Shown in pieces: positions 14,566 through 29,290 of a stretch of 41,333 bases of DNA; the stretch's first letter is position 1, and the number at the start of each line of letters is the position of its first letter. The DNA lies in the NCBI GenBank assembly GCA_964534625.1, contig CAZHRF010000029.1, positions 1 to 41,333 on the forward strand, written 5' to 3'. A model generated the notes under the pieces. The model did not search any database, was not told the DNA's origin, and saw only the letters and a program-made list of their open reading frames with translations. Source of the stretch: an uncultured archaeon. Its GTDB lineage: Archaea > Asgardarchaeota > Heimdallarchaeia > Heimdallarchaeales > Heimdallarchaeaceae. The translations under genes were made by a program, and so were the position numbers.

Positions 14566-17451
14566 TTATATTCCCGTTATTGCTTCTGTTCTTGAGCCTA
14601 GAACTACATTTGTTATAAACAAACTGATGATCTGCAAAATCATCAAAAACACGCCTAGAACACAGAATACTTGGAAACCAAAACTTTCGCTATATCTAGC
14701 CATAACCCAAGTAATTGTCCCACCTTTTGAATTATTTATTACCAATATTGTTGTTGAAACCTCACTTAAACAATATATGAAGGACACAATAGATCCCGCA
14801 AATACATTCAGTGATATCATTGGCACAGTTATTTTTGCAAATGTTCTCGTTCTATTTGCCCCTAAATTCATTGAAGCCTCTTCCAATATTACATCTGTTT
14901 GTTGTAATCCCGCATATGCTGCTCTTACAGTAAACGGAAACTTTCTGATGGTATAACTAAGCACAACTAAAGTTACAGCTATGGTTTGAAATGGATCTAA
15001 TAACAAACTTTCAGTTAAATTCATCATGAATTTTGTGAAGAAATTAGGATGATTAGTGTATATACCACCCCAATCAAAAACCATGTAATAGCCTAATGCT
15101 AAAACAAGACCTGGGATAGCTATCGGTATAGTAATTAAAGCATCAAACCATTCTTTACCTCTAAAATTCTTTCTACTTACAACATATGCAGCTGATGTTC
15201 CAAGAAGAATGATCAGTATAGTAGCGAGAATGCTATAATAAAGCGTGTTCTGTGCAAATAAAGATATATTCAATTGTATATCCGCTTGGGCTGGAAGAAA
15301 TACTGATTTATAATGATCCAAAGTCAAATCGATATCTTGGACTCTACTTAAACGAAAGTTTACAACCAATGAACCCAATATTACCCCCATATGTACCATT
15401 AATGAACCCAAGAAGAGTATAACTAAATATGGATAAACCAACAAAGACTTCCATCTTAATGTTGACATTCTATATTTTCCCGCTCTTCCCTTTGATATCA
15501 TGGCATATTGTCTAAGTGAAACATATTTGCGAATAACAAAAAAACCTATCAAGGCGAGCAATAATAAAATTCCCCCTTGCACACAAATTTCCGGAGTTAC
15601 ATTAGACGAACCTTCCTTTGTCAAATTTATAAATACTGAATAAGTTATTAATTTACTAGCTAATGGATCACCCAATCCTTGAAACACAATTGGTGTGCCT
15701 ACATCTTCCATTGAAAGAATAAGAACAAGTATAGCACCTGCACCAATACCGGGCATAGCTAAAGGCAATGTGACCGTCCTAAACAATTTAAAACTACTAG
15801 CGCCAAGATTTTCCGCCTGTTCTTCCATGCTCGGATCAATATTGACAAATGATGAGAAAGAATTCAGATAAATCAAAGCAAAGAAGTGCAAAGATTGAAC
15901 AAGAGATATTCCAACAAAGCCACGAATAATTAAACGTATATCCAACAATGGTTCAAGAAGAAGAATATTTAGCAATCCATTTGGTCCCAATAATAAATTA
16001 AAACCAAATCCTGAAATAAATGGTGGTATTATGAGTGGTGCTAAGGCAAGTAAGCTGAAAATTTTTTTAGCTGGAAATTCATATCTTGCAAGTATAAAAG
16101 CAAGTGACACACCTAAAATTATGGATACAAGCGTGGTAACAATTCCAAGCATTATTGAATTAAATACAACACCTCTGGAAACGCCTACAAATATCAAAAA
16201 AGTAACATAATAAGGGTCTTGATATTCATTTACAAAAAAGATGCCCGAATTGTCACTTATATCAAGTAATACTAACCCCATCTTGCCCATGGCCAAGTAG
16301 AGAGTATTATTATCTGGGCTAACAATAAACCGCTCAGGTATGTTTTGTATGAAATCATAGCTATCTATTATAGAATAATTAGTGTTATTTTCAATATTAA
16401 GAAGTTCTAATTTATATGTAATATCCAATATATTTTTAGTTGAGACAACTGCAACAGTATCAACTATTTTCACTTCATACGTTTGATAACTATTATCATA
16501 ATTAATCTGGGTTATATTATCAATCGTGCTTATATTCAATGAAAGGATACCATCGCCACCCAATGCTATGTAGGCTGTATCTTTTTCTACTGTAATATCT
16601 TCAACTCTAAGCTTTTTAAGCTTGCTATTTTCATCAATATTTATTGTAGAATTAATTTGTTCAGGATTTGTAGAATCAGATATATCAAATATAGAAATAC
16701 CCATTGTTATTCCCCCAACAAAAAGAAAATCTTGATAAAAATCAAATGTCTTAATTGTTCTTTCTAAATCCGTAGAATAACTATGTGTAATATTGTTCTC
16801 TACATCACTAACATCAAAGATATGGAAATAGGTATCATCAGAACAGACATATAACTTATCATTATTAAGCGCCATAAAATTGGTCTTATTTGTCCCCAAA
16901 TCAACAGTATATAGGGGTACAATATCTTCGTCAATGTTAGTAATATTAAAAACGTAAAGTTCAGAACTCGATATAGAGATAAGATGCGATCCCACAACAA
17001 CCAAATCATTAAATGGTTTATTTACTTCAGAATATTGTGCCAATTCCTTTATGTTGTGAGGGTCACTTATATCTAGCATTTCAATACCTTGTAATTGTTC
17101 AGCAATGAAAATATAATTATCTTTAATTGCTATAGATTTTCCATAACCGCCTCTTACATCATTTTCTTCCTTACTGAAAAACGAAGTAGATTGATCTCCA
17201 GCAAGATTGAAGTTTTCTTTATCTTGAAAAGTATTAGCAATAGGTTGTAATGAAAAAGTATTATTGAAATAAACAGCACCTGATAAAACCAACAATAATG
17301 GAATAACCATCCATATGATAAAAACAATTGTAACAATAGAAATAACAACTTTACTTGATGGATCTTTTAATAAGCTTTGATATACGCGATCAATAAAAGA
17401 ACGTTCATAGCTTAACTTTTTATCTTTATGGTATTCTTTCTCTGGCATCAT
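14566..17451 (-). CDS. FbpB/ThiP-type double-domain ABC permease with an inserted LVIVD-repeat beta-propeller
   Basis: Two EAA loops (MEEQAENLGAS, LEEASMNLGAN), PLIIPPF, PIAIPG; seven LVIVD-like repeats at ~16225-17150; agagg SD before ATG 17451. Confidence 0.9.
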   Translation of the reverse strand: MMPEKEYHKDKKLSYERSFIDRVYQSLLKDPSSKVVISIVTIVFIIWMVIPLLLVLSGAVYFNNTFSLQPIANTFQDKENFNLAGDQSTSFFSKEENDVRGGYGKSIAIKDNYIFIAEQLQGIEMLDISDPHNIKELAQYSEVNKPFNDLVVVGSHLISISSSELYVFNITNIDEDIVPLYTVDLGTNKTNFMALNNDKLYVCSDDTYFHIFDVSDVENNITHSYSTDLERTIKTFDFYQDFLFVGGITMGISIFDISDSTNPEQINSTINIDENSKLKKLRVEDITVEKDTAYIALGGDGILSLNISTIDNITQINYDNSYQTYEVKIVDTVAVVSTKNILDITYKLELLNIENNTNYSIIDSYDFIQNIPERFIVSPDNNTLYLAMGKMGLVLLDISDNSGIFFVNEYQDPYYVTFLIFVGVSRGVVFNSIMLGIVTTLVSIILGVSLAFILARYEFPAKKIFSLLALAPLIIPPFISGFGFNLLLGPNGLLNILLLEPLLDIRLIIRGFVGISLVQSLHFFALIYLNSFSSFVNIDPSMEEQAENLGASSFKLFRTVTLPLAMPGIGAGAILVLILSMEDVGTPIVFQGLGDPLASKLITYSVFINLTKEGSSNVTPEICVQGGILLLLALIGFFVIRKYVSLRQYAMISKGRAGKYRMSTLRWKSLLVYPYLVILFLGSLMVHMGVILGSLVVNFRLSRVQDIDLTLDHYKSVFLPAQADIQLNISLFAQNTLYYSILATILIILLGTSAAYVVSRKNFRGKEWFDALITIPIAIPGLVLALGYYMVFDWGGIYTNHPNFFTKFMMNLTESLLLDPFQTIAVTLVVLSYTIRKFPFTVRAAYAGLQQTDVILEEASMNLGANRTRTFAKITVPMISLNVFAGSIVSFIYCLSEVSTTILVINNSKGGTITWVMARYSESFGFQVFCVLGVFLMILQIISLFITNVVLGSRTEAITGI

Positions 17452-17732
17452 TATACCTCTTATATGAGAGGATACAAATTGCCGTTTTTTAATATTTCTC
17501 AAAGAAGTTTTAAAAACTCAAAACAGGTTTTAAAAGAATTTTATCATCTAAAATCTCTGTGTTTTTAATGTGCTTTTTGAATAACGGGTTTTTGATGAAG
17601 ATAGATTACGTTTAAAATAATCATCTATCAATTTGGAACAAATCAAATTTAAATTAGTTAAGACATATCATCTAATCTAAATTAAAATGTAGTATTTATG
17701 AAAAAATTAAAGAAAAGAAGTATGTAAAATTC

Positions 17733-21151: not shown

Positions 21152-21607
21152 CTAATCAACTTGTCCCCAAGTTATAAATTTTCCATCATATCGCTTTACT
21201 AATACCGTTCCCAGTTTTTTCCATCTCTCTTCTCGATAGCGGATAATAGCAAATTGGGCTTTGTCTATTTCGTTCTGTTCTTTTTTAATGATTGCAGATT
21301 GTAATCTCCCCTTTCGATAAAATATTCTCGGGATGTATTTTCCTTCTTTGGGTGTCCGAATAAAATCTTGTGCCATATCTAAAAAATCAGCGACAGGTAA
21401 ATTTGTATAGATTGCTGAATGTTTTTGCGTATATGCAGTACCTAAACACAATTCTTCTTTTTTATTGGTTTTTTTACATCTAGCACAAAAAACCAAATGG
21501 CAAGCATTACAGACCTTCCAATTTTCTAGTACAGCTTGAGAGAGTTTTTCAATCTTATTACAACTAGAGCATCTAATATAGTAGAGAGAGATGTCTTTTG
21601 ATTTCAT
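21152..21607 (-). CDS. RING/PHD/FYVE-like binuclear zinc-finger protein, last gene of the SMC operon
   Basis: C-x2-C-x16-C-x2-C-x4-C-x2-C-x9-C-x8-H; ATGA overlap with the upstream gene. Confidence 0.7.
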   Translation of the reverse strand: MKSKDISLYYIRCSSCNKIEKLSQAVLENWKVCNACHLVFCARCKKTNKKEELCLGTAYTQKHSAIYTNLPVADFLDMAQDFIRTPKEGKYIPRIFYRKGRLQSAIIKKEQNEIDKAQFAIIRYREERWKKLGTVLVKRYDGKFITWGQVD

Positions 21608-22275
21608 AGCCTATTAAACTCCTTACTTATTTTTTTTCGCTCGTCATCATCAAATTCAATAAAAAGACGAAAAATTGCTTGTATCTCTCCCCTACCCCGT
21701 TTCACGTAACCTAAGGTATCTAGTTTTCTCAATATTCTATCAATTTTGTATTCTTTCAGTATTCCAGGAACAACTAATTTTGTTTTAAGTTCTGTTACAT
21801 TTACTATATTTTTTTCATTTTTTTGCATTAAAGCAATAACAGACCCTAACACCAACAATTGGTCTTCAGTTAATTCTGGGGGGGCATAATGTTGAGATTT
21901 CAAACAGTACCATATCTGTTCTTTGTGAGTATATTCAACAATCTTTAAACCCAATATGTTCACGAAACGATCATATTCTTCCAATTCCTGATTTAATGTT
22001 GTTATATCATACTTTGTTGCTAAAAGCAGATCCATTTGAGTACAACCATATACTGTTTCGCCTTCAAATTGCCATCTTCTTGTCAATATAGTGGTTAATT
22101 CGCGGAATAAAGCTGTTTTCTCTTTATCGGTTATTAAAGGAGGAAAAAAGGCTTCACGATCAACATACTGTTTTTCTGTAGATTTTTTGCTGGTTCTTTC
22201 TATATCTTCAGAATGAGGAATAGGCTTTTCAGTCTTACCCTTTCCAGAATTTTCAATATCGATTGAATCATCCAT
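21604..22275 (-). CDS. Tandem winged-helix KITE protein (Nse1/ScpB-like)
   Basis: WH-A end (ELEEYDRFVNILGLKIV....WYCL), linker helix (LTEDQLLVLGSVIAL), WH-B (IDRILRKLDTLGYV...EIQAIFRLFIEF). Start ATG 22275 overlaps the upstream stop by 8 nt. Confidence 0.7.
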   Translation of the reverse strand: MDDSIDIENSGKGKTEKPIPHSEDIERTSKKSTEKQYVDREAFFPPLITDKEKTALFRELTTILTRRWQFEGETVYGCTQMDLLLATKYDITTLNQELEEYDRFVNILGLKIVEYTHKEQIWYCLKSQHYAPPELTEDQLLVLGSVIALMQKNEKNIVNVTELKTKLVVPGILKEYKIDRILRKLDTLGYVKRGRGEIQAIFRLFIEFDDDERKKISKEFNRL

Positions 22276-23053
22276 CAACGTCGACCTCTTCAGTTTTTCT
22301 AGAATGTTTCTTTGGAGATAATAGCAAGGAACTAACCACAGAGTCTTTAGGTGAATTACTAGTTCCCCTCTTAAACAATAACATCTCACCCAAATTAATT
22401 ACAATCAATTTTTTTTCACTTACCAATTTTGATAATAATTCAGCTTCAATCGTTGTCAATAATTCATTTAGTACATTTTTAGATATCTTCTTACCTACTA
22501 ATTTGTCCATTAAATTCGTTTCAATTGTCATAAAAACCTCATCTCCAATATGATCTTCTGTTTCTAGTTTTGAAAAATCATACTCACTATAGATGTTAAT
22601 ATAGTCCTCCGAACTACCTTGAGGAGTTAAATCCATTATCTCTCCGCTTACTTTTTCAATATTTACTTGATCAAAAGGGAAAAAACAATCATGTGTGCAA
22701 TAAACTATAGGTTGACATGTCTCAGCAACAAATTGAGAGAACTGTTCTATTCTTCTTTCACGTGTCAATAAGTTGGATAATAGCTCATCTTCACGTAAAT
22801 CAATCATTTCAATAAAATCTTTATAAAGAGATGAATCTAGTAAAAAACTTTTTTGTTCATCGATGTATAAATACGCATCTGAAACCTTGTTTCTGTCTTT
22901 TTCTGCCTCATCTAAGTGTATAGATTTCTTTTTCTTTATTGATCGAGAATATTTTTTTTGTAATTCAAATAGTGTTAGAAAAACAAGATTAGCCCACTCT
23001 CCGTCATATTTCTCAAATGAGATTTTTTCATTTTGATTTTCAGGTTTAGACAT
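22268..23053 (-). CDS. Probable kleisin (Nse4/ScpA-like)
   Basis: Lies between SMC and KITE genes; helical N-domain with FLLDSSLY; low-structure middle; C-terminal WH-like ELLSKLVSEKKLIVINLGEMLLFK. Confidence 0.5.
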   Translation of the reverse strand: MSKPENQNEKISFEKYDGEWANLVFLTLFELQKKYSRSIKKKKSIHLDEAEKDRNKVSDAYLYIDEQKSFLLDSSLYKDFIEMIDLREDELLSNLLTRERRIEQFSQFVAETCQPIVYCTHDCFFPFDQVNIEKVSGEIMDLTPQGSSEDYINIYSEYDFSKLETEDHIGDEVFMTIETNLMDKLVGKKISKNVLNELLTTIEAELLSKLVSEKKLIVINLGEMLLFKRGTSNSPKDSVVSSLLLSPKKHSRKTEEVDVDG

Positions 23054-23056
23054 TTT

Positions 23057-26017
23057 CTATTGCACCTCTAAAGATTCGATGAGAATATGATGACTGAATT
23101 TAGGCGACAATTTAACATTATCTAGAGTAGGCGTGATTAATATAAACTGTGGTAGGAGAGTTTCTTCTTCTTTTGAAAGATTGTATAATGATAAAACCAT
23201 AGAAAAAGCGTGAGCTTTATTTTTATAATCTAGTTTCTGCGTAAACTCATCAATTGCATGAATCGGACAATGATTCTGATGTAAACCTAAAATAATTGCT
23301 TGAGCAATAAGCGTTTTTTCTCCTCCAGATAACTGTCTATATGACCTATTATCTCCTTTAGTCTGTGCTTCAATGTGTAATTCAGCTCTTCTTTGATCTC
23401 TGTAATTAGATATTTTGATAAAAATCGTTTCAAAAACATCAGCTAACAAAAATGAAAGAGCAGCATTTAAATCCTCTACAACATTTATTATCCCCGTTTC
23501 CCATTCCTCTAATCGTTTTTGTAAATCTTTTTCTAAATTTTTCAGATGTTCACGCTCTCCCTCATTGGTTTTAATCAAATTTTCGACTTTTTTTTGTTGT
23601 GATTTAATAGTCTCTTCACTTATCTCTGGAGTAATATTTATCAACTCTAATTGCCCTTTAATCGAGTAATATTCTTTTGATATAGTGTCACGGTTTTCAC
23701 GAATTTCAGAAGGCTTTTCTCCAGATTCTTCTGCTTTTTTCATTTTGAGAGGGAGAAAACTGTTAAATTCTTGTAACTCAGAAGAATAGCGCGATTTTTT
23801 TTCAACAAGTGATTGTTTTTCCCTAGCTAAACCTTCTAGTTCTGAGTTAATTTCGCTCATATTGCCTGATATACGCTCTTTCTCCAATTTTTTTGTTTGT
23901 ATCAACTCTGATAGTTTTACCATTTTTTTCTCAATAGTATAAATTTTATTTTCTATAGTTTTTATAGCATTTTTTTCAATAGCAACTTCAGTTAAAAATT
24001 CTTGTCGTCTCTCTTCAATAAGTAAAATCTGATTTTCAAGTTGATTTTTGCTTAACGACCAAGGGTTTAATTTTCTTTTTAGTTCATCTTGGTCTTTGAA
24101 GAGACTTATTTTTTTACTTCGTAATAACGTTTCTTTTTCCTTTAAACTTTCATTCTCTCTTTCTAATTTGCTCTTATTATGTCTTAATTGAGAGATGGAT
24201 TTATATTTTTCAATTTCAACACCTACTTTAATACTACTAACGGGAGGCGGTCTTGTAAATGCTCCACGATGAAGAAAAAAACTATTACAGTCAGTTGTTA
24301 GGACGTTTACTCTATTTTTTTGAGCAAAGTCCGTAAGTAAATTACTCGATATATTTGGATAAGCCAAACATGTTCGAACGAACTTTCTTAAATAGTACAT
24401 TATGTGAAACGGTCCCTCAATAAGATTAATTGCCATATCTATTACTCCCGATGGTTTATTTTCTAATATCTGATTTTTTTGCTTATAATCAGGTATTGGT
24501 CCTTCTTCTTCTAATACCCTCCCTACAGTTATGTTAAGTTTATAATTACTAGACAAACCATCGTATATCTGTTTGGCTCTCTCATACGCATCATGAGATG
24601 TGGCAACATAGTGAAAAAGAGCTGTTCCAATAACAGTAGTAATTGGTTTTTCTAGTTCTTTATAGGAATCTTTTATTTTAATAACTTCAAAAACAGGACC
24701 TATAATTTCATCGGTATACCCAGTTTGTTCAATTGCTGATTTAAAACGAACAACATCTTCTAAGGTTTTTCTTTCTCTCTCTCGTAGCTGTCCAAAACGC
24801 CTACTTCGTTTGTCAATTAAATCTTCTAACTGCAAAATTTTTTCCTTATTCAGATGAATATTTTTTTGGATCATATGAATATTGGATTCAGTATCATTTA
24901 TAGTAATTTTAATCGTATCTAAAGATTTTATAAGGGCTGCTTTCTTTTTTATGCTTTCTTCACTGCTAATATTTACAAATTTCTCACGTCTTCTTTCAAG
25001 TTCTTGCAATTTACTTTCATAATTAGTTATTATATTCTTTTTTTCTTCTATTTTTCCTTCTTTACGATTCTTATTTTTTTCTAGCAGATCGAGTTCATAT
25101 TTTGTTTCAGTAAAAACAGCTTGTTTTTCTTCGAGTGTTTTTCCTAGAGTTTGCTTTTTTTTAAGCAAGGTGTTTTCTTTTTGCTTTATTTTTTCTCTTC
25201 TTTCTCTTAAAGATTGAATCTTATCTTCATTTTCAGTAATAGCCTTTTTGAGTTTAAGATAATCATACCACGCCAGTTCTCTTTTGAGTATATCAAATTT
25301 TTCTATCAGTTCTGTTCTTTGCTCTAACTGTTCATAGTCGTCTTTCATTTTTTGCAAGTTGTTTTTTTCCCTCTCTAGCTGTAACAACAATGGAGAAACT
25401 TGTCTTTGTTTCTCTTCTAGTTTGCTCTTCGAAATCTTATATCTTTCATATGTTTCTTTTAGACCTGTTGCTTCAAGTAAGTTGTCTAATTTTTTATATG
25501 GGGAATCATTGGCAAAAGCATCTAAAAAACCCTCCTCAGTAAAATTAAACATAGTTTCATCATGAATACCTATACTCTTCATGATACGCTGAACCTGGCG
25601 CCTTGTAACTGATTTAGAGCTTGTTCCCGTATGGATTTGCCGTTTGATAGTTCCCTCTTTTCTTATCTCGGTTTCAATACTTATATTACTATGAGACAAG
25701 ATGTGTTCAATATCGGGATCATCAATCTGAAAAAGTCTGCTCCCATTGGTTAAAGGATTACATAATGAAAGGATAATAGTTGAATGATCATCAAAAGGTC
25801 CGATTAACTCAGTGTTCTTTGAAAGTGCTACTCTACTAGGAGTTTGTCCTACAGACAGTATAAGTGATTCTAGAATTTGGGTTTTTCCACTCCCATTGGC
25901 TCCAGATATAACCGTGATAGGATTGTTAGATAAATCTAGTTCAGTATATTTATGCATTTTATAGTTGTACATCTTGAGTGAATCGAAAACAAATCCTTCT
26001 TTACCCTCTACATTCAT
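23057..26017 (-). CDS. SMC5/6-type SMC ATPase
   Basis: Walker A GANGSGKT; two long coiled coils; central hinge IIGPVFEVIKI; signature LSGGEKT; Walker B AIDEFTQKLD; QFILITP end typical of SMC5/6. Start ATG 26017. Confidence 0.88.
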   Translation of the reverse strand: MNVEGKEGFVFDSLKMYNYKMHKYTELDLSNNPITVISGANGSGKTQILESLILSVGQTPSRVALSKNTELIGPFDDHSTIILSLCNPLTNGSRLFQIDDPDIEHILSHSNISIETEIRKEGTIKRQIHTGTSSKSVTRRQVQRIMKSIGIHDETMFNFTEEGFLDAFANDSPYKKLDNLLEATGLKETYERYKISKSKLEEKQRQVSPLLLQLEREKNNLQKMKDDYEQLEQRTELIEKFDILKRELAWYDYLKLKKAITENEDKIQSLRERREKIKQKENTLLKKKQTLGKTLEEKQAVFTETKYELDLLEKNKNRKEGKIEEKKNIITNYESKLQELERRREKFVNISSEESIKKKAALIKSLDTIKITINDTESNIHMIQKNIHLNKEKILQLEDLIDKRSRRFGQLRERERKTLEDVVRFKSAIEQTGYTDEIIGPVFEVIKIKDSYKELEKPITTVIGTALFHYVATSHDAYERAKQIYDGLSSNYKLNITVGRVLEEEGPIPDYKQKNQILENKPSGVIDMAINLIEGPFHIMYYLRKFVRTCLAYPNISSNLLTDFAQKNRVNVLTTDCNSFFLHRGAFTRPPPVSSIKVGVEIEKYKSISQLRHNKSKLERENESLKEKETLLRSKKISLFKDQDELKRKLNPWSLSKNQLENQILLIEERRQEFLTEVAIEKNAIKTIENKIYTIEKKMVKLSELIQTKKLEKERISGNMSEINSELEGLAREKQSLVEKKSRYSSELQEFNSFLPLKMKKAEESGEKPSEIRENRDTISKEYYSIKGQLELINITPEISEETIKSQQKKVENLIKTNEGEREHLKNLEKDLQKRLEEWETGIINVVEDLNAALSFLLADVFETIFIKISNYRDQRRAELHIEAQTKGDNRSYRQLSGGEKTLIAQAIILGLHQNHCPIHAIDEFTQKLDYKNKAHAFSMVLSLYNLSKEEETLLPQFILITPTLDNVKLSPKFSHHILIESLEVQ

Positions 26018-26236
26018 CTTTCCAATCGACCTTATTGCTAAAACTAGTACAGAGAACATACTATTTAAAGCAATTCAATTCACATACAATGTAACTAATA
26101 AACTAGATTCAAAGAAAGAAGAAAGAAAACGGCACATGTGACAAGTCACTTATCCCTTCGTATGCTTTTTATCTTGATAAGAAGAAAAACAGAAAGAAAA
26201 AATAAAAAGTAAAAAGAAAAGAAACAAAAAAATAGG

Positions 26237-29200
26237 TTATTTCTTACGTTTTTTGTTTAAGGTTACTACTGCGGTAATAACTAAGGTTGTAATGGTGATA
26301 TATACAAAATCCATTGAACCAAGAAATCTTGTTCTCTCTTGTCCACCTGTATGTACATCTGCACCTGCTGATGTACCAGTTGAAGTAGAAGAACCATAAT
26401 CTTCCCAATTATCTGTTTCTTGCGCTTCACCATTCATTACCATAAGAGATGAGGTTCCACCACCAAGTGTAGGATCGCCTCCACCTAGTTCATTTTCAAA
26501 TGCAGTAGAATAAACAACAACCATACCAGGTAAATTACAGCCATCATTCGTTAAGAAAACCCAATGCATTGATATTTCTACACTTTCATTTACATCGAGG
26601 TTAATGTCCTCAACAGTTATGACTGCAAATCCACCATAACTTCCATTGGATACTGTCCCTTCTGTTGTTGTTACCCATCTGAGCTCTAGCTCATCTTCAT
26701 TGAAATATTGTAGTGCTAGAATATCAGTTTCAGTTCCACCAACATTTTCAATGGTCACAGTAACTGTTAGTTCAGAAGGTTTACCATCTTCAAAATCAAA
26801 CTCAACTGTTGTGGTTATATCTAATACGGGTTGTGGCCATGCGGGGGCTAATGCTTCAGAATCGGGCAATAAAAGTCCCCATGCCATGTTTGAAACAACC
26901 CATTGATGGGTTTCACCTGCGCCCTCATATACTGCGGGAGGCGCGTCGGGATTGAAGAAATTCTCAACTTCTAATGGTGGTTGGCCATAATCACTTATGA
27001 AATCCACTACTGCATATACTGGATGAATCCCTAAGAATGAGTTAGCATCAACAGTAACATTGAATTCATGTTTTGTTCCATTTTCAATTATTCCTACTGT
27101 TTCTACATAGAATATTTCAGGTTCTACTATCTGCCAATTATTACCCAATCGACCATGAACTAACCATAAATCTACTTCATGGGCATCAATATCACCGACA
27201 TTTTCTATATATCCGGTAATTTGTACTGGATCACCAACTGTATATTCTAGTTTATCTAGTTCTACATATACATTTAATACAGCTTCATCGTCAACAAGTT
27301 GGAAGTTTATGCCATTACTAAATCCAAAATATTCAAAACCTGCGGTATCTTCATAGCTAAATCGCGCACCAACAGATATCCAGATATCTTGCCATGCATC
27401 ATAAAAACTTATAGGTCGGCCATATGCCAATTGACCAGCTTTATCTGCATACCCTAGTAACATTTGCATCATTTCATAGAAGTTATGTTCATTTGTTACA
27501 AGTTCAATAGCTTTACCAAAATCTCCGTCCGGTATATCTACTAGTGACCAAAACATGGCACCAAATGTCATCCATGGAGCTGTTATGTTTTCTAGTGCCC
27601 ATTGTACTGTAGTTGATGCACCAACATCAAGAGTAGCTATTTCAGTTTCTAAGAACCATTCGGTTCTGTTCTCTCCGAAACGTGTTACAGTACGATTAAC
27701 TAAGTCGAAATCTTGGTAATTAGGATCAAATAGTGTCTGATTAACATATAAAAGATCAAATAAATCTTTGGCTGCGTTCTTCACTCCATCTATAAGACTT
27801 GCCTTATAATCACTCAATAGCTCACTTACTTCTGTATAGCTATAATTATTGATATCTATTGGATCTAGAAACTCTTTAACTCTATTGACAAGAATATTAC
27901 TTAAACCATCAGGATTACTTACTGAGATAGTTGTATCTATAGTACCTATTTGACCTGAAACATCATAAGTAGCAGACTCTGTTTTTACAATTTCCTCGGT
28001 ATTTGTTTCATCAAAGTCTACCCATGTTCCATTTTCATATTGATACCAGTTATCAAATAACAATACCTCTTGTGTCAGCTCCATATCATCATAACCTTCG
28101 AATGCTCCACCATAGTCGACATAAATCGTTACACTAGTATTCGTCTGTATGGTATCGGAAATATTGACATCGTCTCTTAACCTTGGTAGAACAGGTTTAT
28201 TCTCGATTAAATCCATAAAATCTGGTCCTAATGGATAACTGATTAGAACATTTTTGGCTACTTCGGTACCTGTATTAATAATATCATACTCCATCTGTAG
28301 GATACCTTCAGTTTGTAATAAATCATGGTCATATGCCATATTAACTGATACCCTTGGAGCAAGTAGTGCTGAATGATCTACTGTATACGTCACTTCAAAA
28401 TCCAGTGTTGCTCTTTTCACCCATCCTGGATATTGCATATCCCAGTCCATTCTTCCAGTTATTTGTGGAGCTACATTATCTGTATCCGGTGTGATTACTG
28501 AAGGATTGATTGTATAGGGGAATCGCACTTTCACACTAGAATAATGTTTGTAACCTTCCATTGTAGAAGCTGTTAATGCTCCTCCAAAGATATTAGCGGC
28601 AGATAGTGTATAGGGACTTGTTCCTGTTATTGCTTCATCATCTACATAATAGATCCCTCTGACAGATTGTATTCCATAAGGTGTTTCACCTTCTCCTACA
28701 AATACTGTTTTTACAGGGGCATCAGCTATATCAGTAGCACTTAATGCTGAAGCAAAACCATCTGTTATATCGCCTTGTATTTCTGTTACAAGATCATTAA
28801 ATTTACTATTTCCTTCTAATCCACCATTAAACGCATATATATTTGGATCATATATTGCCCCTAGCCACAAATCTATTCCATAATAGTCGGAGTAGAGTTC
28901 GGCTACTGCCATAGCGTCTTGAACATCAGCTGATGTTTGCATCTGTAAAAGTAGTGTGGCATTATCAGGCGCTTTAAATGGTCTTCTTAGAAGATAACTA
29001 TCATATGCTTCTTGATCAGATAGTACAAATATCCAGTTCTTCACCTTATCCAATGCTGTTCCTGTTGGTTTTTCTGTCGATGGACCTCCAACAAGATTCA
29101 TCTTTATGAGAGCAGCAGAGTCAATACCCGCTACAACCGTTAAATCTTCAATAAAATAGGGCTCTGATTGTGTTGTCATTTCAGAACCAAATTGATTAGT

Positions 29201-29290
29201 TGCAGCCATTACTTGACTAGCTGTCCCACTTAAGGTTAGCAATACTAATAATGTTCCTAGCAAGGAACTTAAAATATATTTTGACTTCAT
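26237..29290 (-). CDS. Large acidic surface (S-layer-like) glycoprotein with Ig/CARDB-like segments
   Basis: Signal peptide; repeated (I/V)xN(T/V)G beta-sandwich motifs; many NxS/T sequons; Ser/Thr/Gly linker; TM plus KKRKK; gaggagg SD. Confidence 0.7.
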   Translation of the reverse strand: MKSKYILSSLLGTLLVLLTLSGTASQVMAATNQFGSEMTTQSEPYFIEDLTVVAGIDSAALIKMNLVGGPSTEKPTGTALDKVKNWIFVLSDQEAYDSYLLRRPFKAPDNATLLLQMQTSADVQDAMAVAELYSDYYGIDLWLGAIYDPNIYAFNGGLEGNSKFNDLVTEIQGDITDGFASALSATDIADAPVKTVFVGEGETPYGIQSVRGIYYVDDEAITGTSPYTLSAANIFGGALTASTMEGYKHYSSVKVRFPYTINPSVITPDTDNVAPQITGRMDWDMQYPGWVKRATLDFEVTYTVDHSALLAPRVSVNMAYDHDLLQTEGILQMEYDIINTGTEVAKNVLISYPLGPDFMDLIENKPVLPRLRDDVNISDTIQTNTSVTIYVDYGGAFEGYDDMELTQEVLLFDNWYQYENGTWVDFDETNTEEIVKTESATYDVSGQIGTIDTTISVSNPDGLSNILVNRVKEFLDPIDINNYSYTEVSELLSDYKASLIDGVKNAAKDLFDLLYVNQTLFDPNYQDFDLVNRTVTRFGENRTEWFLETEIATLDVGASTTVQWALENITAPWMTFGAMFWSLVDIPDGDFGKAIELVTNEHNFYEMMQMLLGYADKAGQLAYGRPISFYDAWQDIWISVGARFSYEDTAGFEYFGFSNGINFQLVDDEAVLNVYVELDKLEYTVGDPVQITGYIENVGDIDAHEVDLWLVHGRLGNNWQIVEPEIFYVETVGIIENGTKHEFNVTVDANSFLGIHPVYAVVDFISDYGQPPLEVENFFNPDAPPAVYEGAGETHQWVVSNMAWGLLLPDSEALAPAWPQPVLDITTTVEFDFEDGKPSELTVTVTIENVGGTETDILALQYFNEDELELRWVTTTEGTVSNGSYGGFAVITVEDINLDVNESVEISMHWVFLTNDGCNLPGMVVVYSTAFENELGGGDPTLGGGTSSLMVMNGEAQETDNWEDYGSSTSTGTSAGADVHTGGQERTRFLGSMDFVYITITTLVITAVVTLNKKRKK

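Follow-up and report, generated by a model that had tools for sequence, protein, structure and literature searches.

The window, by which we mean the whole 41,333-nt stretch of DNA analysed here (contig CAZHRF010000029.1, assembly GCA_964534625.1, from an uncultured Heimdallarchaeaceae archaeon), carries four tightly packed genes on its reverse strand. The first operon gene encodes an SMC5/6-related SMC ATPase of 1000 aa with a hinge (23057..26059), followed by a kleisin candidate of 261 aa assigned solely by its position (22268..23053), a KITE subunit of 223 aa (21604..22275), and a finger protein of 151 aa (21152..21607), the conserved fourth gene, whose orthologues likewise lie beside KITE. 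The SMC and kleisin candidate genes are separated by a 3-nt gap, and the end of the kleisin candidate overlaps the KITE start by 8 nt (22268..22275, ATGGATGA). The KITE ORF runs from its ATG at 22275 to a TGA at 21604-21606, and the finger ORF starts with an ATG at 21607-21605, giving a 4-nt stop/start overlap (ATGA, 21604..21607) by which both genes would be translationally coupled. The ORF coordinates thereby confirm the KITE end as quoted in an earlier note on this DNA, with its TGA overlapping the ATG of the finger ORF; the 8-nt overlap between the kleisin candidate and KITE is absent from that note, as is a second conserved module in the finger protein.

The KITE, SMC, and kleisin candidate subunits

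The KITE protein comprises a disordered N-terminal tail of ~45 aa followed by two winged-helix (WH) domains. Its AF2 model (mcb2166f8d559) has a pLDDT of 80.5 overall and above 89 from residue 51 on, and matches Nse1 structures in the PDB from Xenopus (7dg2_A, Z 11.4 over 162 aa), human (NSE1, 5hvq_C, Z 10.1), and yeast (7ymd_B, Z 9.6), but also ScpB (4i98_C, Z 10.4) as well as MukE and JetB. The model and these matches bear out the tandem-WH KITE nature that had been proposed for this protein, which is encoded, as KITEs are, beside an SMC and a kleisin candidate. As modelled, the fold fits Nse1 and ScpB about equally, and the tandem WH is thus not specific for Nse1. The best full-length structural match is nonetheless Nse1, with an alignment that covers residues 2-181 of 7dg2_A and 9-188 of 5hvq_C and stops at the residue just before the Nse1 RING. 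By sequence, KITE was unmatched by the Pfam family SMC_Nse1 (PF07574) in hmmscan at E<=1, and the whole genome held no match at E<=1 either; SMC_ScpB likewise failed to match the KITE gene and gave only sub-threshold matches, on other contigs, in the genome search, while a protein-language-model atlas offered nothing beyond weak leads, which pointed to MAGE and MksE. A profile of the KITE subfamily detects one copy per genome, more divergent paralogues being possible. Nse1 pairs with a paralogous KITE (Nse3/MAGE), whereas the Asgard operon has one KITE gene, so that a homodimer would be expected rather than an Nse1/Nse3 heterodimer.

For the SMC protein, hmmscan gave 47.9 bits to Pfam SMC_N and 20.2 bits to SMC_hinge, the latter rising to 23.7 bits, over the cut-off, in the genome search. 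A family profile built from 10 orthologues found its best match in yeast Smc6 over the full length (E 2.9e-44), followed by SMC4 (3e-31), prokaryotic Smc (2e-25), and SMC5 (1e-24), in agreement with a relationship to SMC5/6. The kleisin candidate occupies the same slot between SMC and KITE in all loci and had no match in Pfam or the PDB by sequence. In two GTDB families of Asgard archaea (f7 and f12) a canonical 1200-aa SMC is also encoded elsewhere in the genome; in family f1, the operon SMC is the only hinge-bearing SMC found in genome searches. A defence system (Wadjet, Lamassu, or others) was considered and rejected, as PADLOC returned only generic ATPase matches for the SMC and none for the other three proteins.

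Conservation and distribution across Asgard archaea

The loci compared come from eight GTDB families of Asgard archaea (f1, f2, f3, f6, f7, f8, f12, and f29). Wherever enough contig is available, a locus shows the order SMC, kleisin candidate, KITE, and finger, and the finger is its own ORF in all examined loci of these families. Of 400 Asgard genomes, 68 contained full-length finger orthologues, which adjoin KITE wherever the contig allows. Furthermore, the phyletic patterns of the finger and the KITE subfamily are nearly identical: each is present in 27 of 30 genomes of family f1, and the finger and KITE occur in 11 and 10 of 12 genomes of f7 and in 19 and 16 of 19 genomes of f12, respectively. 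Searches of family f4 recovered neither of the two, f5 gave one weak partial match for each (E 7e-4 for the finger and 6e-9 for KITE) in different genomes, and f20 a single weak match to the finger (1/135) and none to KITE; the operon SMC used as query had no match in five f4/f5 genomes. The four genes thus share their gains, retention, and losses across the Asgard families. The linkage between KITE and the finger that had been claimed for the window is therefore strict and co-inherited, and zinc-finger homologues unlinked to it did not turn up within the full-length family.

The KITE/finger junction itself differs between families. The 4-nt ATGA overlap is present in 25/25 family-f1 loci examined, several of which use a TTG start; outside f1, and depending on the family, the genes overlap by 14 nt, abut directly, or are separated by spacers of 20-38 nt with differing relative frames. 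Fused KITE-ZnF ORFs, which the earlier note had proposed to look for in other genomes, were lacking among the relatives searched: no fused KITE-finger protein occurred among 1.84 billion representatives, in a search for long proteins, or among KITE relatives, whose lengths range from 105 to 419 aa, and the database relatives of the finger protein are all 69-176 aa long. Judged from these gene layouts, the two-gene state of KITE and finger is ancestral and universal here.

Ligands and predicted fold of the finger protein

The binuclear RING-like zinc finger spans residues about 10-66 (21410..21580, reverse strand), with four pairs of ligands formed by C13, C16, C33, C36, C41, C44, C54, and H63; the previously noted spacing C-x2-C-x16-C-x2-C-x4-C-x2-C-x9-C-x8-H is exact in the 151-aa product. 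Among 45 non-identical orthologues, which are 22-49% identical, C33, C36, C44, C54, and H63 are invariant and C13 is present in 44 (all that cover the position), while C, H, or D occurs at position 16 and C or D at position 41. In a few database relatives, H63 is missing and a Cys four residues past C54 takes its place. Given such conservation among divergent orthologues, the alignment indicates that the eight-ligand pattern is not due to chance.

The AF2 model of the finger reaches a pLDDT of 90-97 over residues 11-50. Its best structure match is the RING of RNF4 (2xeu_A, rmsd 2.5 Å, 58/64 residues) with Z 5.7; scores of about 5 lie below the level treated as clearly non-random, modest values of this kind being expected when a domain has 60 residues. 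The Prp19 U-box superimposes with an rmsd of 1.8-2.1 Å, and RING, U-box, SP-RING, or ZZ domains make up nearly all top 50 entries in two VIA searches as well as the majority of the best Foldseek rows. These matches of the predicted model favour a RING/U-box-like fold for the downstream finger, which had been put forward as RING-like. At the sequence level, the best Pfam matches of the finger family all fall under the gathering score (zf-RING_UBOX 1.9e-4, zf-C3HC4 1e-3, zf-RING_4 4.6e-3), individual members have sub-threshold matches to RING families, B-box, FYVE, and IBR and weak ones to the CNOT4 and CesA RINGs, and the protein-language-model atlas offered nothing usable. From the superposition on RINGs, and since both variable ligand positions (16 and 41, ligands 2 and 5) would belong to site 1 if the ligands were cross-braced, we infer for the modelled finger a cross-brace mode of zinc ligation; sequential ligation may apply instead, given the weak IBR matches. 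As in canonical RING and U-box domains (RNF4, Ring1B, Prp19) and C4C4 RINGs (CNOT4, the cellulose synthase zf-UDP), the ligands come in four pairs, but the finger differs by its 16-residue loop between pairs 1 and 2, which contains a short helix, by the unusual spacing of the last pair, and by E2-contact residues that are not conserved in this lineage.

The finger is followed by a C-terminal module (residues 67-151; 21155..21409, reverse strand), predicted by AF2 to consist of a short helix, a long helix (residues 91-119), and a three-stranded sheet with a pLDDT of 87-92. E127 and W129 are invariant in the 45 orthologues, and R139, G142, and W147 are present in 44 of them; the module has no Pfam family match. 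The finger appears to be portable, as it also exists alone in a paralogue, ZnF2, which is devoid of the C-terminal module and paired with a transglutaminase-like gene. Two ORFs beside ZnF2 in L061, considered as a ubiquitin-like protein and an E2, were dropped, as they had no support from Pfam.

Function and origin of the finger protein

We consider it fairly probable that the 151-aa protein serves an Asgard SMC5/6-related complex as its dedicated fourth subunit, and is not half of a broken gene. Likely, its conserved C-terminal helix-plus-sheet module would dock on KITE or the kleisin and so anchor the protein to the complex, where the N-terminal two-zinc finger could act as a portable interaction module presented to partners. 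In this position the finger might stabilise the KITE-kleisin subcomplex, or it might recruit a partner such as a ubiquitin-charged E2; by analogy, this would be the role that the Nse1 RING plays in cis in eukaryotes, supplied here in trans. In the window's own lineage, the positions resembling the E2-contacting helix are Lys45 and Asn48 instead of Ile/Phe, so that a structural or adaptor role seems to be favoured over catalysis in this lineage; ligand 7 is followed by Leu here. A conserved charge-based binding of DNA was rejected in view of pI values of 4.8 to 9.6 across the orthologues. Like the charge, the E2-contact-like residues are not conserved among them.

An active E3 ligase, in which the finger would recruit a cognate Asgard E2~ubiquitin and modify the kleisin or chromatin proteins, is conceivable by analogy, with the odds rather against it. 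Canonical RINGs contact the E2 by a helix of the form C-L-x-x-W, and the helix after ligand 6 of the finger resembles it as C-[IL]-x-x-[FVY] in most families outside f1; in addition, Pro follows ligand 7 in 43/45 orthologues. The RING/U-box matches of the model point in the same direction, as do the E2-like genes (at least 4) and ubiquitin-like genes (at least 2) of this genome that score above Pfam cut-offs, and Nse1 itself provides a precedent, working as an E3 with Ubc13/Mms2 and Nse4 (PMC8750328). Against such an activity speak the Lys45, Asn48, and Leu of the window's lineage, an operon that contains no E2, E1, or ubiquitin gene, and the ZZ, B-box, FYVE, and IBR relatives of the same fold, which are not RING-type E3s.

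As to its origin, the operon mirrors the layout of Nse1 in two pieces, and common descent of its finger with the Nse1 RING is possible, if not likely. Both systems share the tandem-WH KITE fold, an SMC5/6-type partner SMC, which is Smc6-like here, and a RING-type binuclear finger after the second WH, realised here in gene order. However, the C4HC3 vRING of Nse1 follows WH-B in the same polypeptide, whereas the Asgard finger is encoded as a polypeptide of its own in all genomes and is of the C4C3H type. The proposal of the earlier note that the finger is Nse1 RING-like held in part: the core spacing C-x2-C-x4-X-x2-C is common to both and fits C4HC3 fingers, by which the vRING is defined (PMC8750328), but this spacing is generic to binuclear treble-clef fingers, and a specific homology to the vRING found no backing in Pfam. 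Thus, besides the unmatched PF07574, zf-RING-like (PF08746) was absent from the matches of the finger protein at E<=5 and from the 25 families that were matched by the largest numbers of the 23 finger-family members, and a genome search with it yielded just two unrelated matches (E about 0.3).

The more far-reaching version of this kinship holds that the Nse1 vRING descends directly from the free-standing finger, which would have been fused to the KITE C-terminus on the eukaryotic stem; in this view, an Asgard SMC5/6-like complex would already have possessed a RING subunit in trans, and eukaryotes would have fused this RING to one KITE paralogue, giving rise to Nse1. We regard both statements as unlikely, albeit not negligible. 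The agreement of gene order with Nse1 domain order, the KITE alignment that ends where the Nse1 RING begins, the Smc6-like SMC, the RING-type fold of the model, and the shared core spacing speak for such a fusion. They are opposed by the missing matches to PF08746 and PF07574 and by the structure searches, in which Nse2, RNF4, Prp19, and ZZ, but no Nse1 chains, were among the 50 entries listed per VIA search, these entries showing the best chain only and possibly hiding a weaker alignment. Moreover, ligand 5 is Cys and not His, the last pair is C-x8-H or C-x4-C and not C-x2-C, nothing in Nse1 corresponds to the additional 85-aa C-terminal module, searches of families f4 and f5, which belong to the same class, did not recover the operon, and no fused intermediate exists in any database searched.

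Even less probable, to a degree that makes it hard to credit, is that the finger protein is the counterpart of Nse2/Mms21 and not of Nse1, a RING-type subunit that would bind the SMC arm via its long helix. Nse2 SP-RING chains do occur among the matches (7qcd_C Z 4.9, 3htk_C Z 4.6, 7p47_A Z 4.3), and a finger and a long helix are combined in one protein here, but many unrelated RINGs reach the same Z values, the order of the domains is the opposite of that in Nse2, SP-RINGs coordinate a single zinc while eight ligands are conserved here, and the translational coupling is to KITE instead of the SMC. Finally, the notion of a split Nse1 as a broken or frameshifted gene (be it by an assembly or sequencing frameshift, by a recent split through which a fused KITE-RING gene became a pseudogene, or by a programmed -1 frameshift making the fusion) has in its favour solely that shifting by 1 nt at 21604-21607 would bring the two genes into one frame, and it is effectively refuted by the separate ORFs in all examined loci of the eight families at 22-49% identity, on which an assembly frameshift was rejected, by the spacers in differing frames, by the lack of a slippery heptamer at the KITE/finger junction, and by the fruitless searches for a fused protein.

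A probable fourth subunit sets this operon apart from related systems. ScpB, MukE, and JetB have a fold like that of the Asgard KITE, whose gene similarly follows the kleisin (candidate) in the operon, but we know of no zinc-finger partner gene in any of these systems. Archaeal SMC5/6-related operons have been described as comprising three subunits, an SMC, a kleisin, and an Nse1/3-like kite (van Hooff et al., bioRxiv 10.1101/2024.01.07.573240; Yoshinaga & Inagaki, PMC8665677), and they resemble the present one in that a non-canonical second SMC paralogue is encoded in one operon with kleisin and kite. In contrast, a fourth, RING-like gene belongs to the unit here, and in family f1 the operon SMC is not a second paralogue to another detected hinge-bearing SMC. 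As a 2025 preprint (bioRxiv 10.1101/2024.01.07.573240) takes the Nse1 RING for an innovation of eukaryotes that archaeal kites lack, the linkage of a RING-like gene to an Nse1-like kite appears to be undescribed.

Either an SMC5/6-type machine was already paired with a RING module before there were eukaryotes, or such a pairing arose twice. SMC5/6 is the least understood of the eukaryotic SMC complexes and, to our knowledge, the only one with built-in RING-type ligases. If the free-standing finger were indeed the precursor of the vRING, the Nse1 RING would not be a eukaryotic invention. The operon further offers a simple four-protein archaeal system for the role of a RING in an SMC complex, be it by clamping kite and kleisin structurally or by recruiting an E2, and cells of family f1 would apparently possess no other hinge-bearing SMC complex.

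Separate genes for the KITE and the finger

Four tightly packed ORFs on the minus strand of the window encode an SMC-like protein of 1000 aa (23057-26059), a kleisin candidate of 261 aa (22268-23053), a tandem winged-helix (KITE) protein of 223 aa (ATG at 22275, down to 21604), and a 151-aa protein with a zinc finger (21152-21607). The kleisin-candidate and KITE ORFs overlap by 8 nt, and the ATGA stop/start overlap between the KITE and finger genes claimed earlier is indeed present at 21604-21607, as the KITE ORF terminates in ...AGG CTA TGA and the finger ATG starts one base earlier. No competing ORF of at least 50 aa was found on the opposite strand of 21152-22262. The KITE frame is open further upstream to a GTG at 22389 (window 22276-22389, minus), whose use would yield 261 aa and overlap the kleisin candidate; the alignment and the orthologues, which are 189-239 aa long, favour the ATG at 22275 as the true start. 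Near the operon lie two large proteins of membrane or surface type: a permease-like protein of 978 aa carrying a long insert on the extracellular side (14566-17502, minus; ~3.6 kb beyond the finger gene) and, directly upstream of the SMC gene, a secreted protein of 1017 aa anchored at its C-terminus (26237-29290, minus). Neither seems connected with the SMC genes.

A six-frame search of 83 genomes of the class recovered full-length, stop-free finger matches of ~150 aa in the GTDB families f1 (the family of the window; 28/30), f2, f3, f6, and f7; when 400 genomes of the phylum were searched with a profile, f8, f12 (19/19), and f29 joined the list. Onto 37 and then 10 further loci cut from these genomes the four window proteins were mapped: the order SMC, kleisin candidate, KITE, finger recurred wherever the contig was long enough, and the finger was its own ORF in all mapped loci. 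The 4-nt overlap is kept in all 25 f1 loci, several of them with a TTG start, while spacers of 20-38 nt separate the two genes in f2, f7, f8, and f12 where ORFs were called; at one locus (L036) they directly abut, at another (L035) they overlap by 14 nt. In many f1 genomes the finger apparently starts with TTG within TTGA instead of the ATGA of the window (e.g. L027:8042-8497, L031:1532-1987, L032:7968-8423), so that the overlap is conserved and the start codon is not. The relative frames of both genes vary among families, and the junction contains no slippery site. Fused KITE-finger ORFs, which the earlier note had proposed to seek in other Asgard genomes, did not turn up in any search: HMMER against 1.84 billion representatives gave 27 matches, all of 69-176 aa; the finger profile found none among proteins of 309-2000 aa; and among proteins of 105-419 aa the KITE profile had 14 matches, all of 189-239 aa. 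An assembly artefact or broken gene is thus effectively ruled out by the two-ORF state across families, the differing frames, the lack of a slippery site, and the absence of fusions from these searches. The gene arrangement is one of coupled translation, and the four genes are inherited together.

The SMC, KITE, and kleisin candidate

The operon SMC possesses Walker motifs, and its hinge scores weakly but above threshold; taken alone, the sequence is too divergent for classification. A profile of ten orthologues, compared with PDB targets, matched yeast Smc6 in one full-length stretch (E 2.9e-44), followed by human SMC6 (3e-38), SMC4 (3e-31), prokaryotic Smc (2e-25), and SMC5 (1e-24). On these E-values, the protein belongs with the SMC5/6-related SMCs of archaea as understood by Yoshinaga & Inagaki (PMC8665677) and van Hooff et al. 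(bioRxiv 10.1101/2024.01.07.573240). Genomes of f7 and f12 encode an additional canonical SMC of ~1200 aa elsewhere. In two closed f1 genomes (G005:C1, G006:C1) and in the genome of the window (G000, 90% complete), the operon SMC was the only hinge-bearing SMC found, and neither ScpA nor ScpB had a Pfam match in the latter; f1 may have lost the canonical condensin-type complex.

The 223-aa protein is modelled as a disordered tail followed by two winged helices, with pLDDT >89 from residue 51, and its full-length structural matches identify it as a KITE: Nse1 (7dg2_A, Z 11.4 over 162 aa; 5hvq_C, Z 10.1; 7ymd_B, Z 9.6) and ScpB (4i98_C and 3w6j_C, Z 10.4), then MukE and JetB, the preference for Nse1 over ScpB lying within the tie margin of the tool. 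The alignments stop at Nse1 residues 181-188, just short of its RING. The 261-aa ORF is a kleisin candidate named from its position only, as sequence searches gave no kleisin support.

The finger and the window-type KITE subfamily are present in, and absent from, the same families. The query used recovered no operon SMC from five high-quality f4/f5 genomes. A distant relative of the KITE occurs in the family f14, in an SMC-like operon that is shorter (831, 233, and 172 aa), has no finger gene after the KITE-like ORF, and looks like a different SMC-like paralogue. At L076:4950-8590 (minus) and L078:3292-6935 (plus), this operon comprises an 831-aa ATPase, a 233-aa ORF, and a KITE-like ORF of 167-172 aa matching the KITE profile with E ~1e-10. 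From the shared family distribution and the distant, finger-less f14 operon, it follows that the unit is gained and lost as four genes.

A RING-like finger with its own C-terminal module

The ligand spacing described earlier is exact: C13, C16, C33, C36, C41, C44, C54, and H63. Two alignments were examined, one of 23 database relatives and one of 45 orthologues taken from the loci. In the orthologues C33, C36, C44, C54, and H63 are invariant, and C13 is present in every sequence covering it; C, H, and D all occur as ligand 2, the 6/6 cut-out f12 loci have D as ligand 5, and a few distant relatives carry a Cys four residues after C54 instead of H63. The alignments thus indicate that eight zinc ligands are maintained, and if ligation is cross-braced, the tolerant ligands 2 and 5 would share one zinc site.

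The AF2 model (pLDDT 84 overall, 90-97 over residues 11-50) runs strand, knuckle, strand, short helix, strand, knuckle, and a helix starting at C41/C44. The match list from Foldseek and two VIA-align searches is almost uniform, with RING, U-box, SP-RING, and ZZ domains, including the RNF4 RING (2xeu_A, Z 5.7, rmsd 2.5 Å, 58/64 residues), the RINGs of Ring1B/Bmi1, Rad18, Rbx1, TRAF, and Tfb3, Prp19 U-boxes (rmsd 1.8-2.1 Å), and the Nse2 SP-RING (7qcd_C, Z 4.9; 3htk_C, Z 4.6). As absolute values these Z scores are low, and we call the predicted fold RING-like on the uniform match list and the ligand pattern. Pfam matches were all sub-threshold (zf-RING_4, zf-UDP, zf-RING_UBOX, zf-C3HC4, B-box, FYVE, IBR), and a PDB profile search reached the RINGs of cellulose synthase and of CNOT4 (E 0.1-0.3). 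The Nse1 RING-like model PF08746 was not among the Pfam matches and gave only two unrelated hits at E ~0.3 in the genome search, and the 50 fold matches listed in either VIA search included no Nse1 chain. A RING-type fold is therefore borne out by the model, but no tie to Nse1 in particular is established.

Residues 67-151, absent from the first description of the protein, fold into one short and one long helix and a sheet of three strands (pLDDT 87-92 in the sheet). E127 and W129 of this part do not vary among 45 orthologues, and 44/45 retain R139, G142, and W147. This module matches no Pfam family. A paralogue of 115-140 aa, ZnF2, covers profile positions 9-70 only and lacks it; in f7 and f12 ZnF2 adjoins a transglutaminase-like gene. 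At L061 (1671-2066 and 80-1681, both minus) and L066 (6605-6982 and 7001-8713, both plus), a ZnF2 of 125-131 aa is directly followed by a transglutaminase-like protein of 533-570 aa (Transglut_core E 4e-24 and 2e-20). In f12 this pair is found immediately upstream of the SMC operon in divergent orientation, in f7 at a distance of 10-13 kb. The finger would thus be a portable module and its C-terminal part an anchor specific to the SMC complex.

Proposed role and relation to Nse1

The finger protein is probably a stoichiometric fourth subunit, anchored via its C-terminal module, and its RING-like finger would serve in trans the function that the Nse1 RING has in cis, by stabilising the kite-kleisin subcomplex, recruiting a partner, or both. 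E3 activity is conceivable, as the genome of the window carries E2 and ubiquitin genes. In most families the sequence after ligand 6 reads C-[IL]-x-x-[FVY], similar to the helix with which canonical RINGs bind E2. Most f1 members, including that of the window, instead have Lys after ligand 6, with Asn at the second position in the window and several others, and the window finger has Leu after ligand 7 in place of the usual Pro. Judged by these residues, an active E3 appears possible but rather doubtful overall, and more doubtful still for the lineage of the window. Charge is not conserved among the orthologues, which argues against a conserved electrostatic role in DNA binding.

The vRING is defined as a C4HC3 domain next to WH-B, and Nse4 is a substrate of Nse1 (PMC8750328). 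The earlier note had read the KITE and finger as a split Nse1, perhaps in its pre-fusion state: the overlapping genes and the ligand pattern stand, the interpretation is only partly supported, and it is quite improbable that this finger is the direct ancestor of the Nse1 RING. While the three-gene archaeal SMC5/6-related operon was already known (PMC8665677; bioRxiv 10.1101/2024.01.07.573240), the literature searched contained no description of a RING-like gene in such operons. What appears new is a probable RING-like subunit, conserved and encoded by its own gene, in an archaeal complex related to SMC5/6; its SMC, KITE, and finger are assigned to their folds and families by the profile and structure matches.
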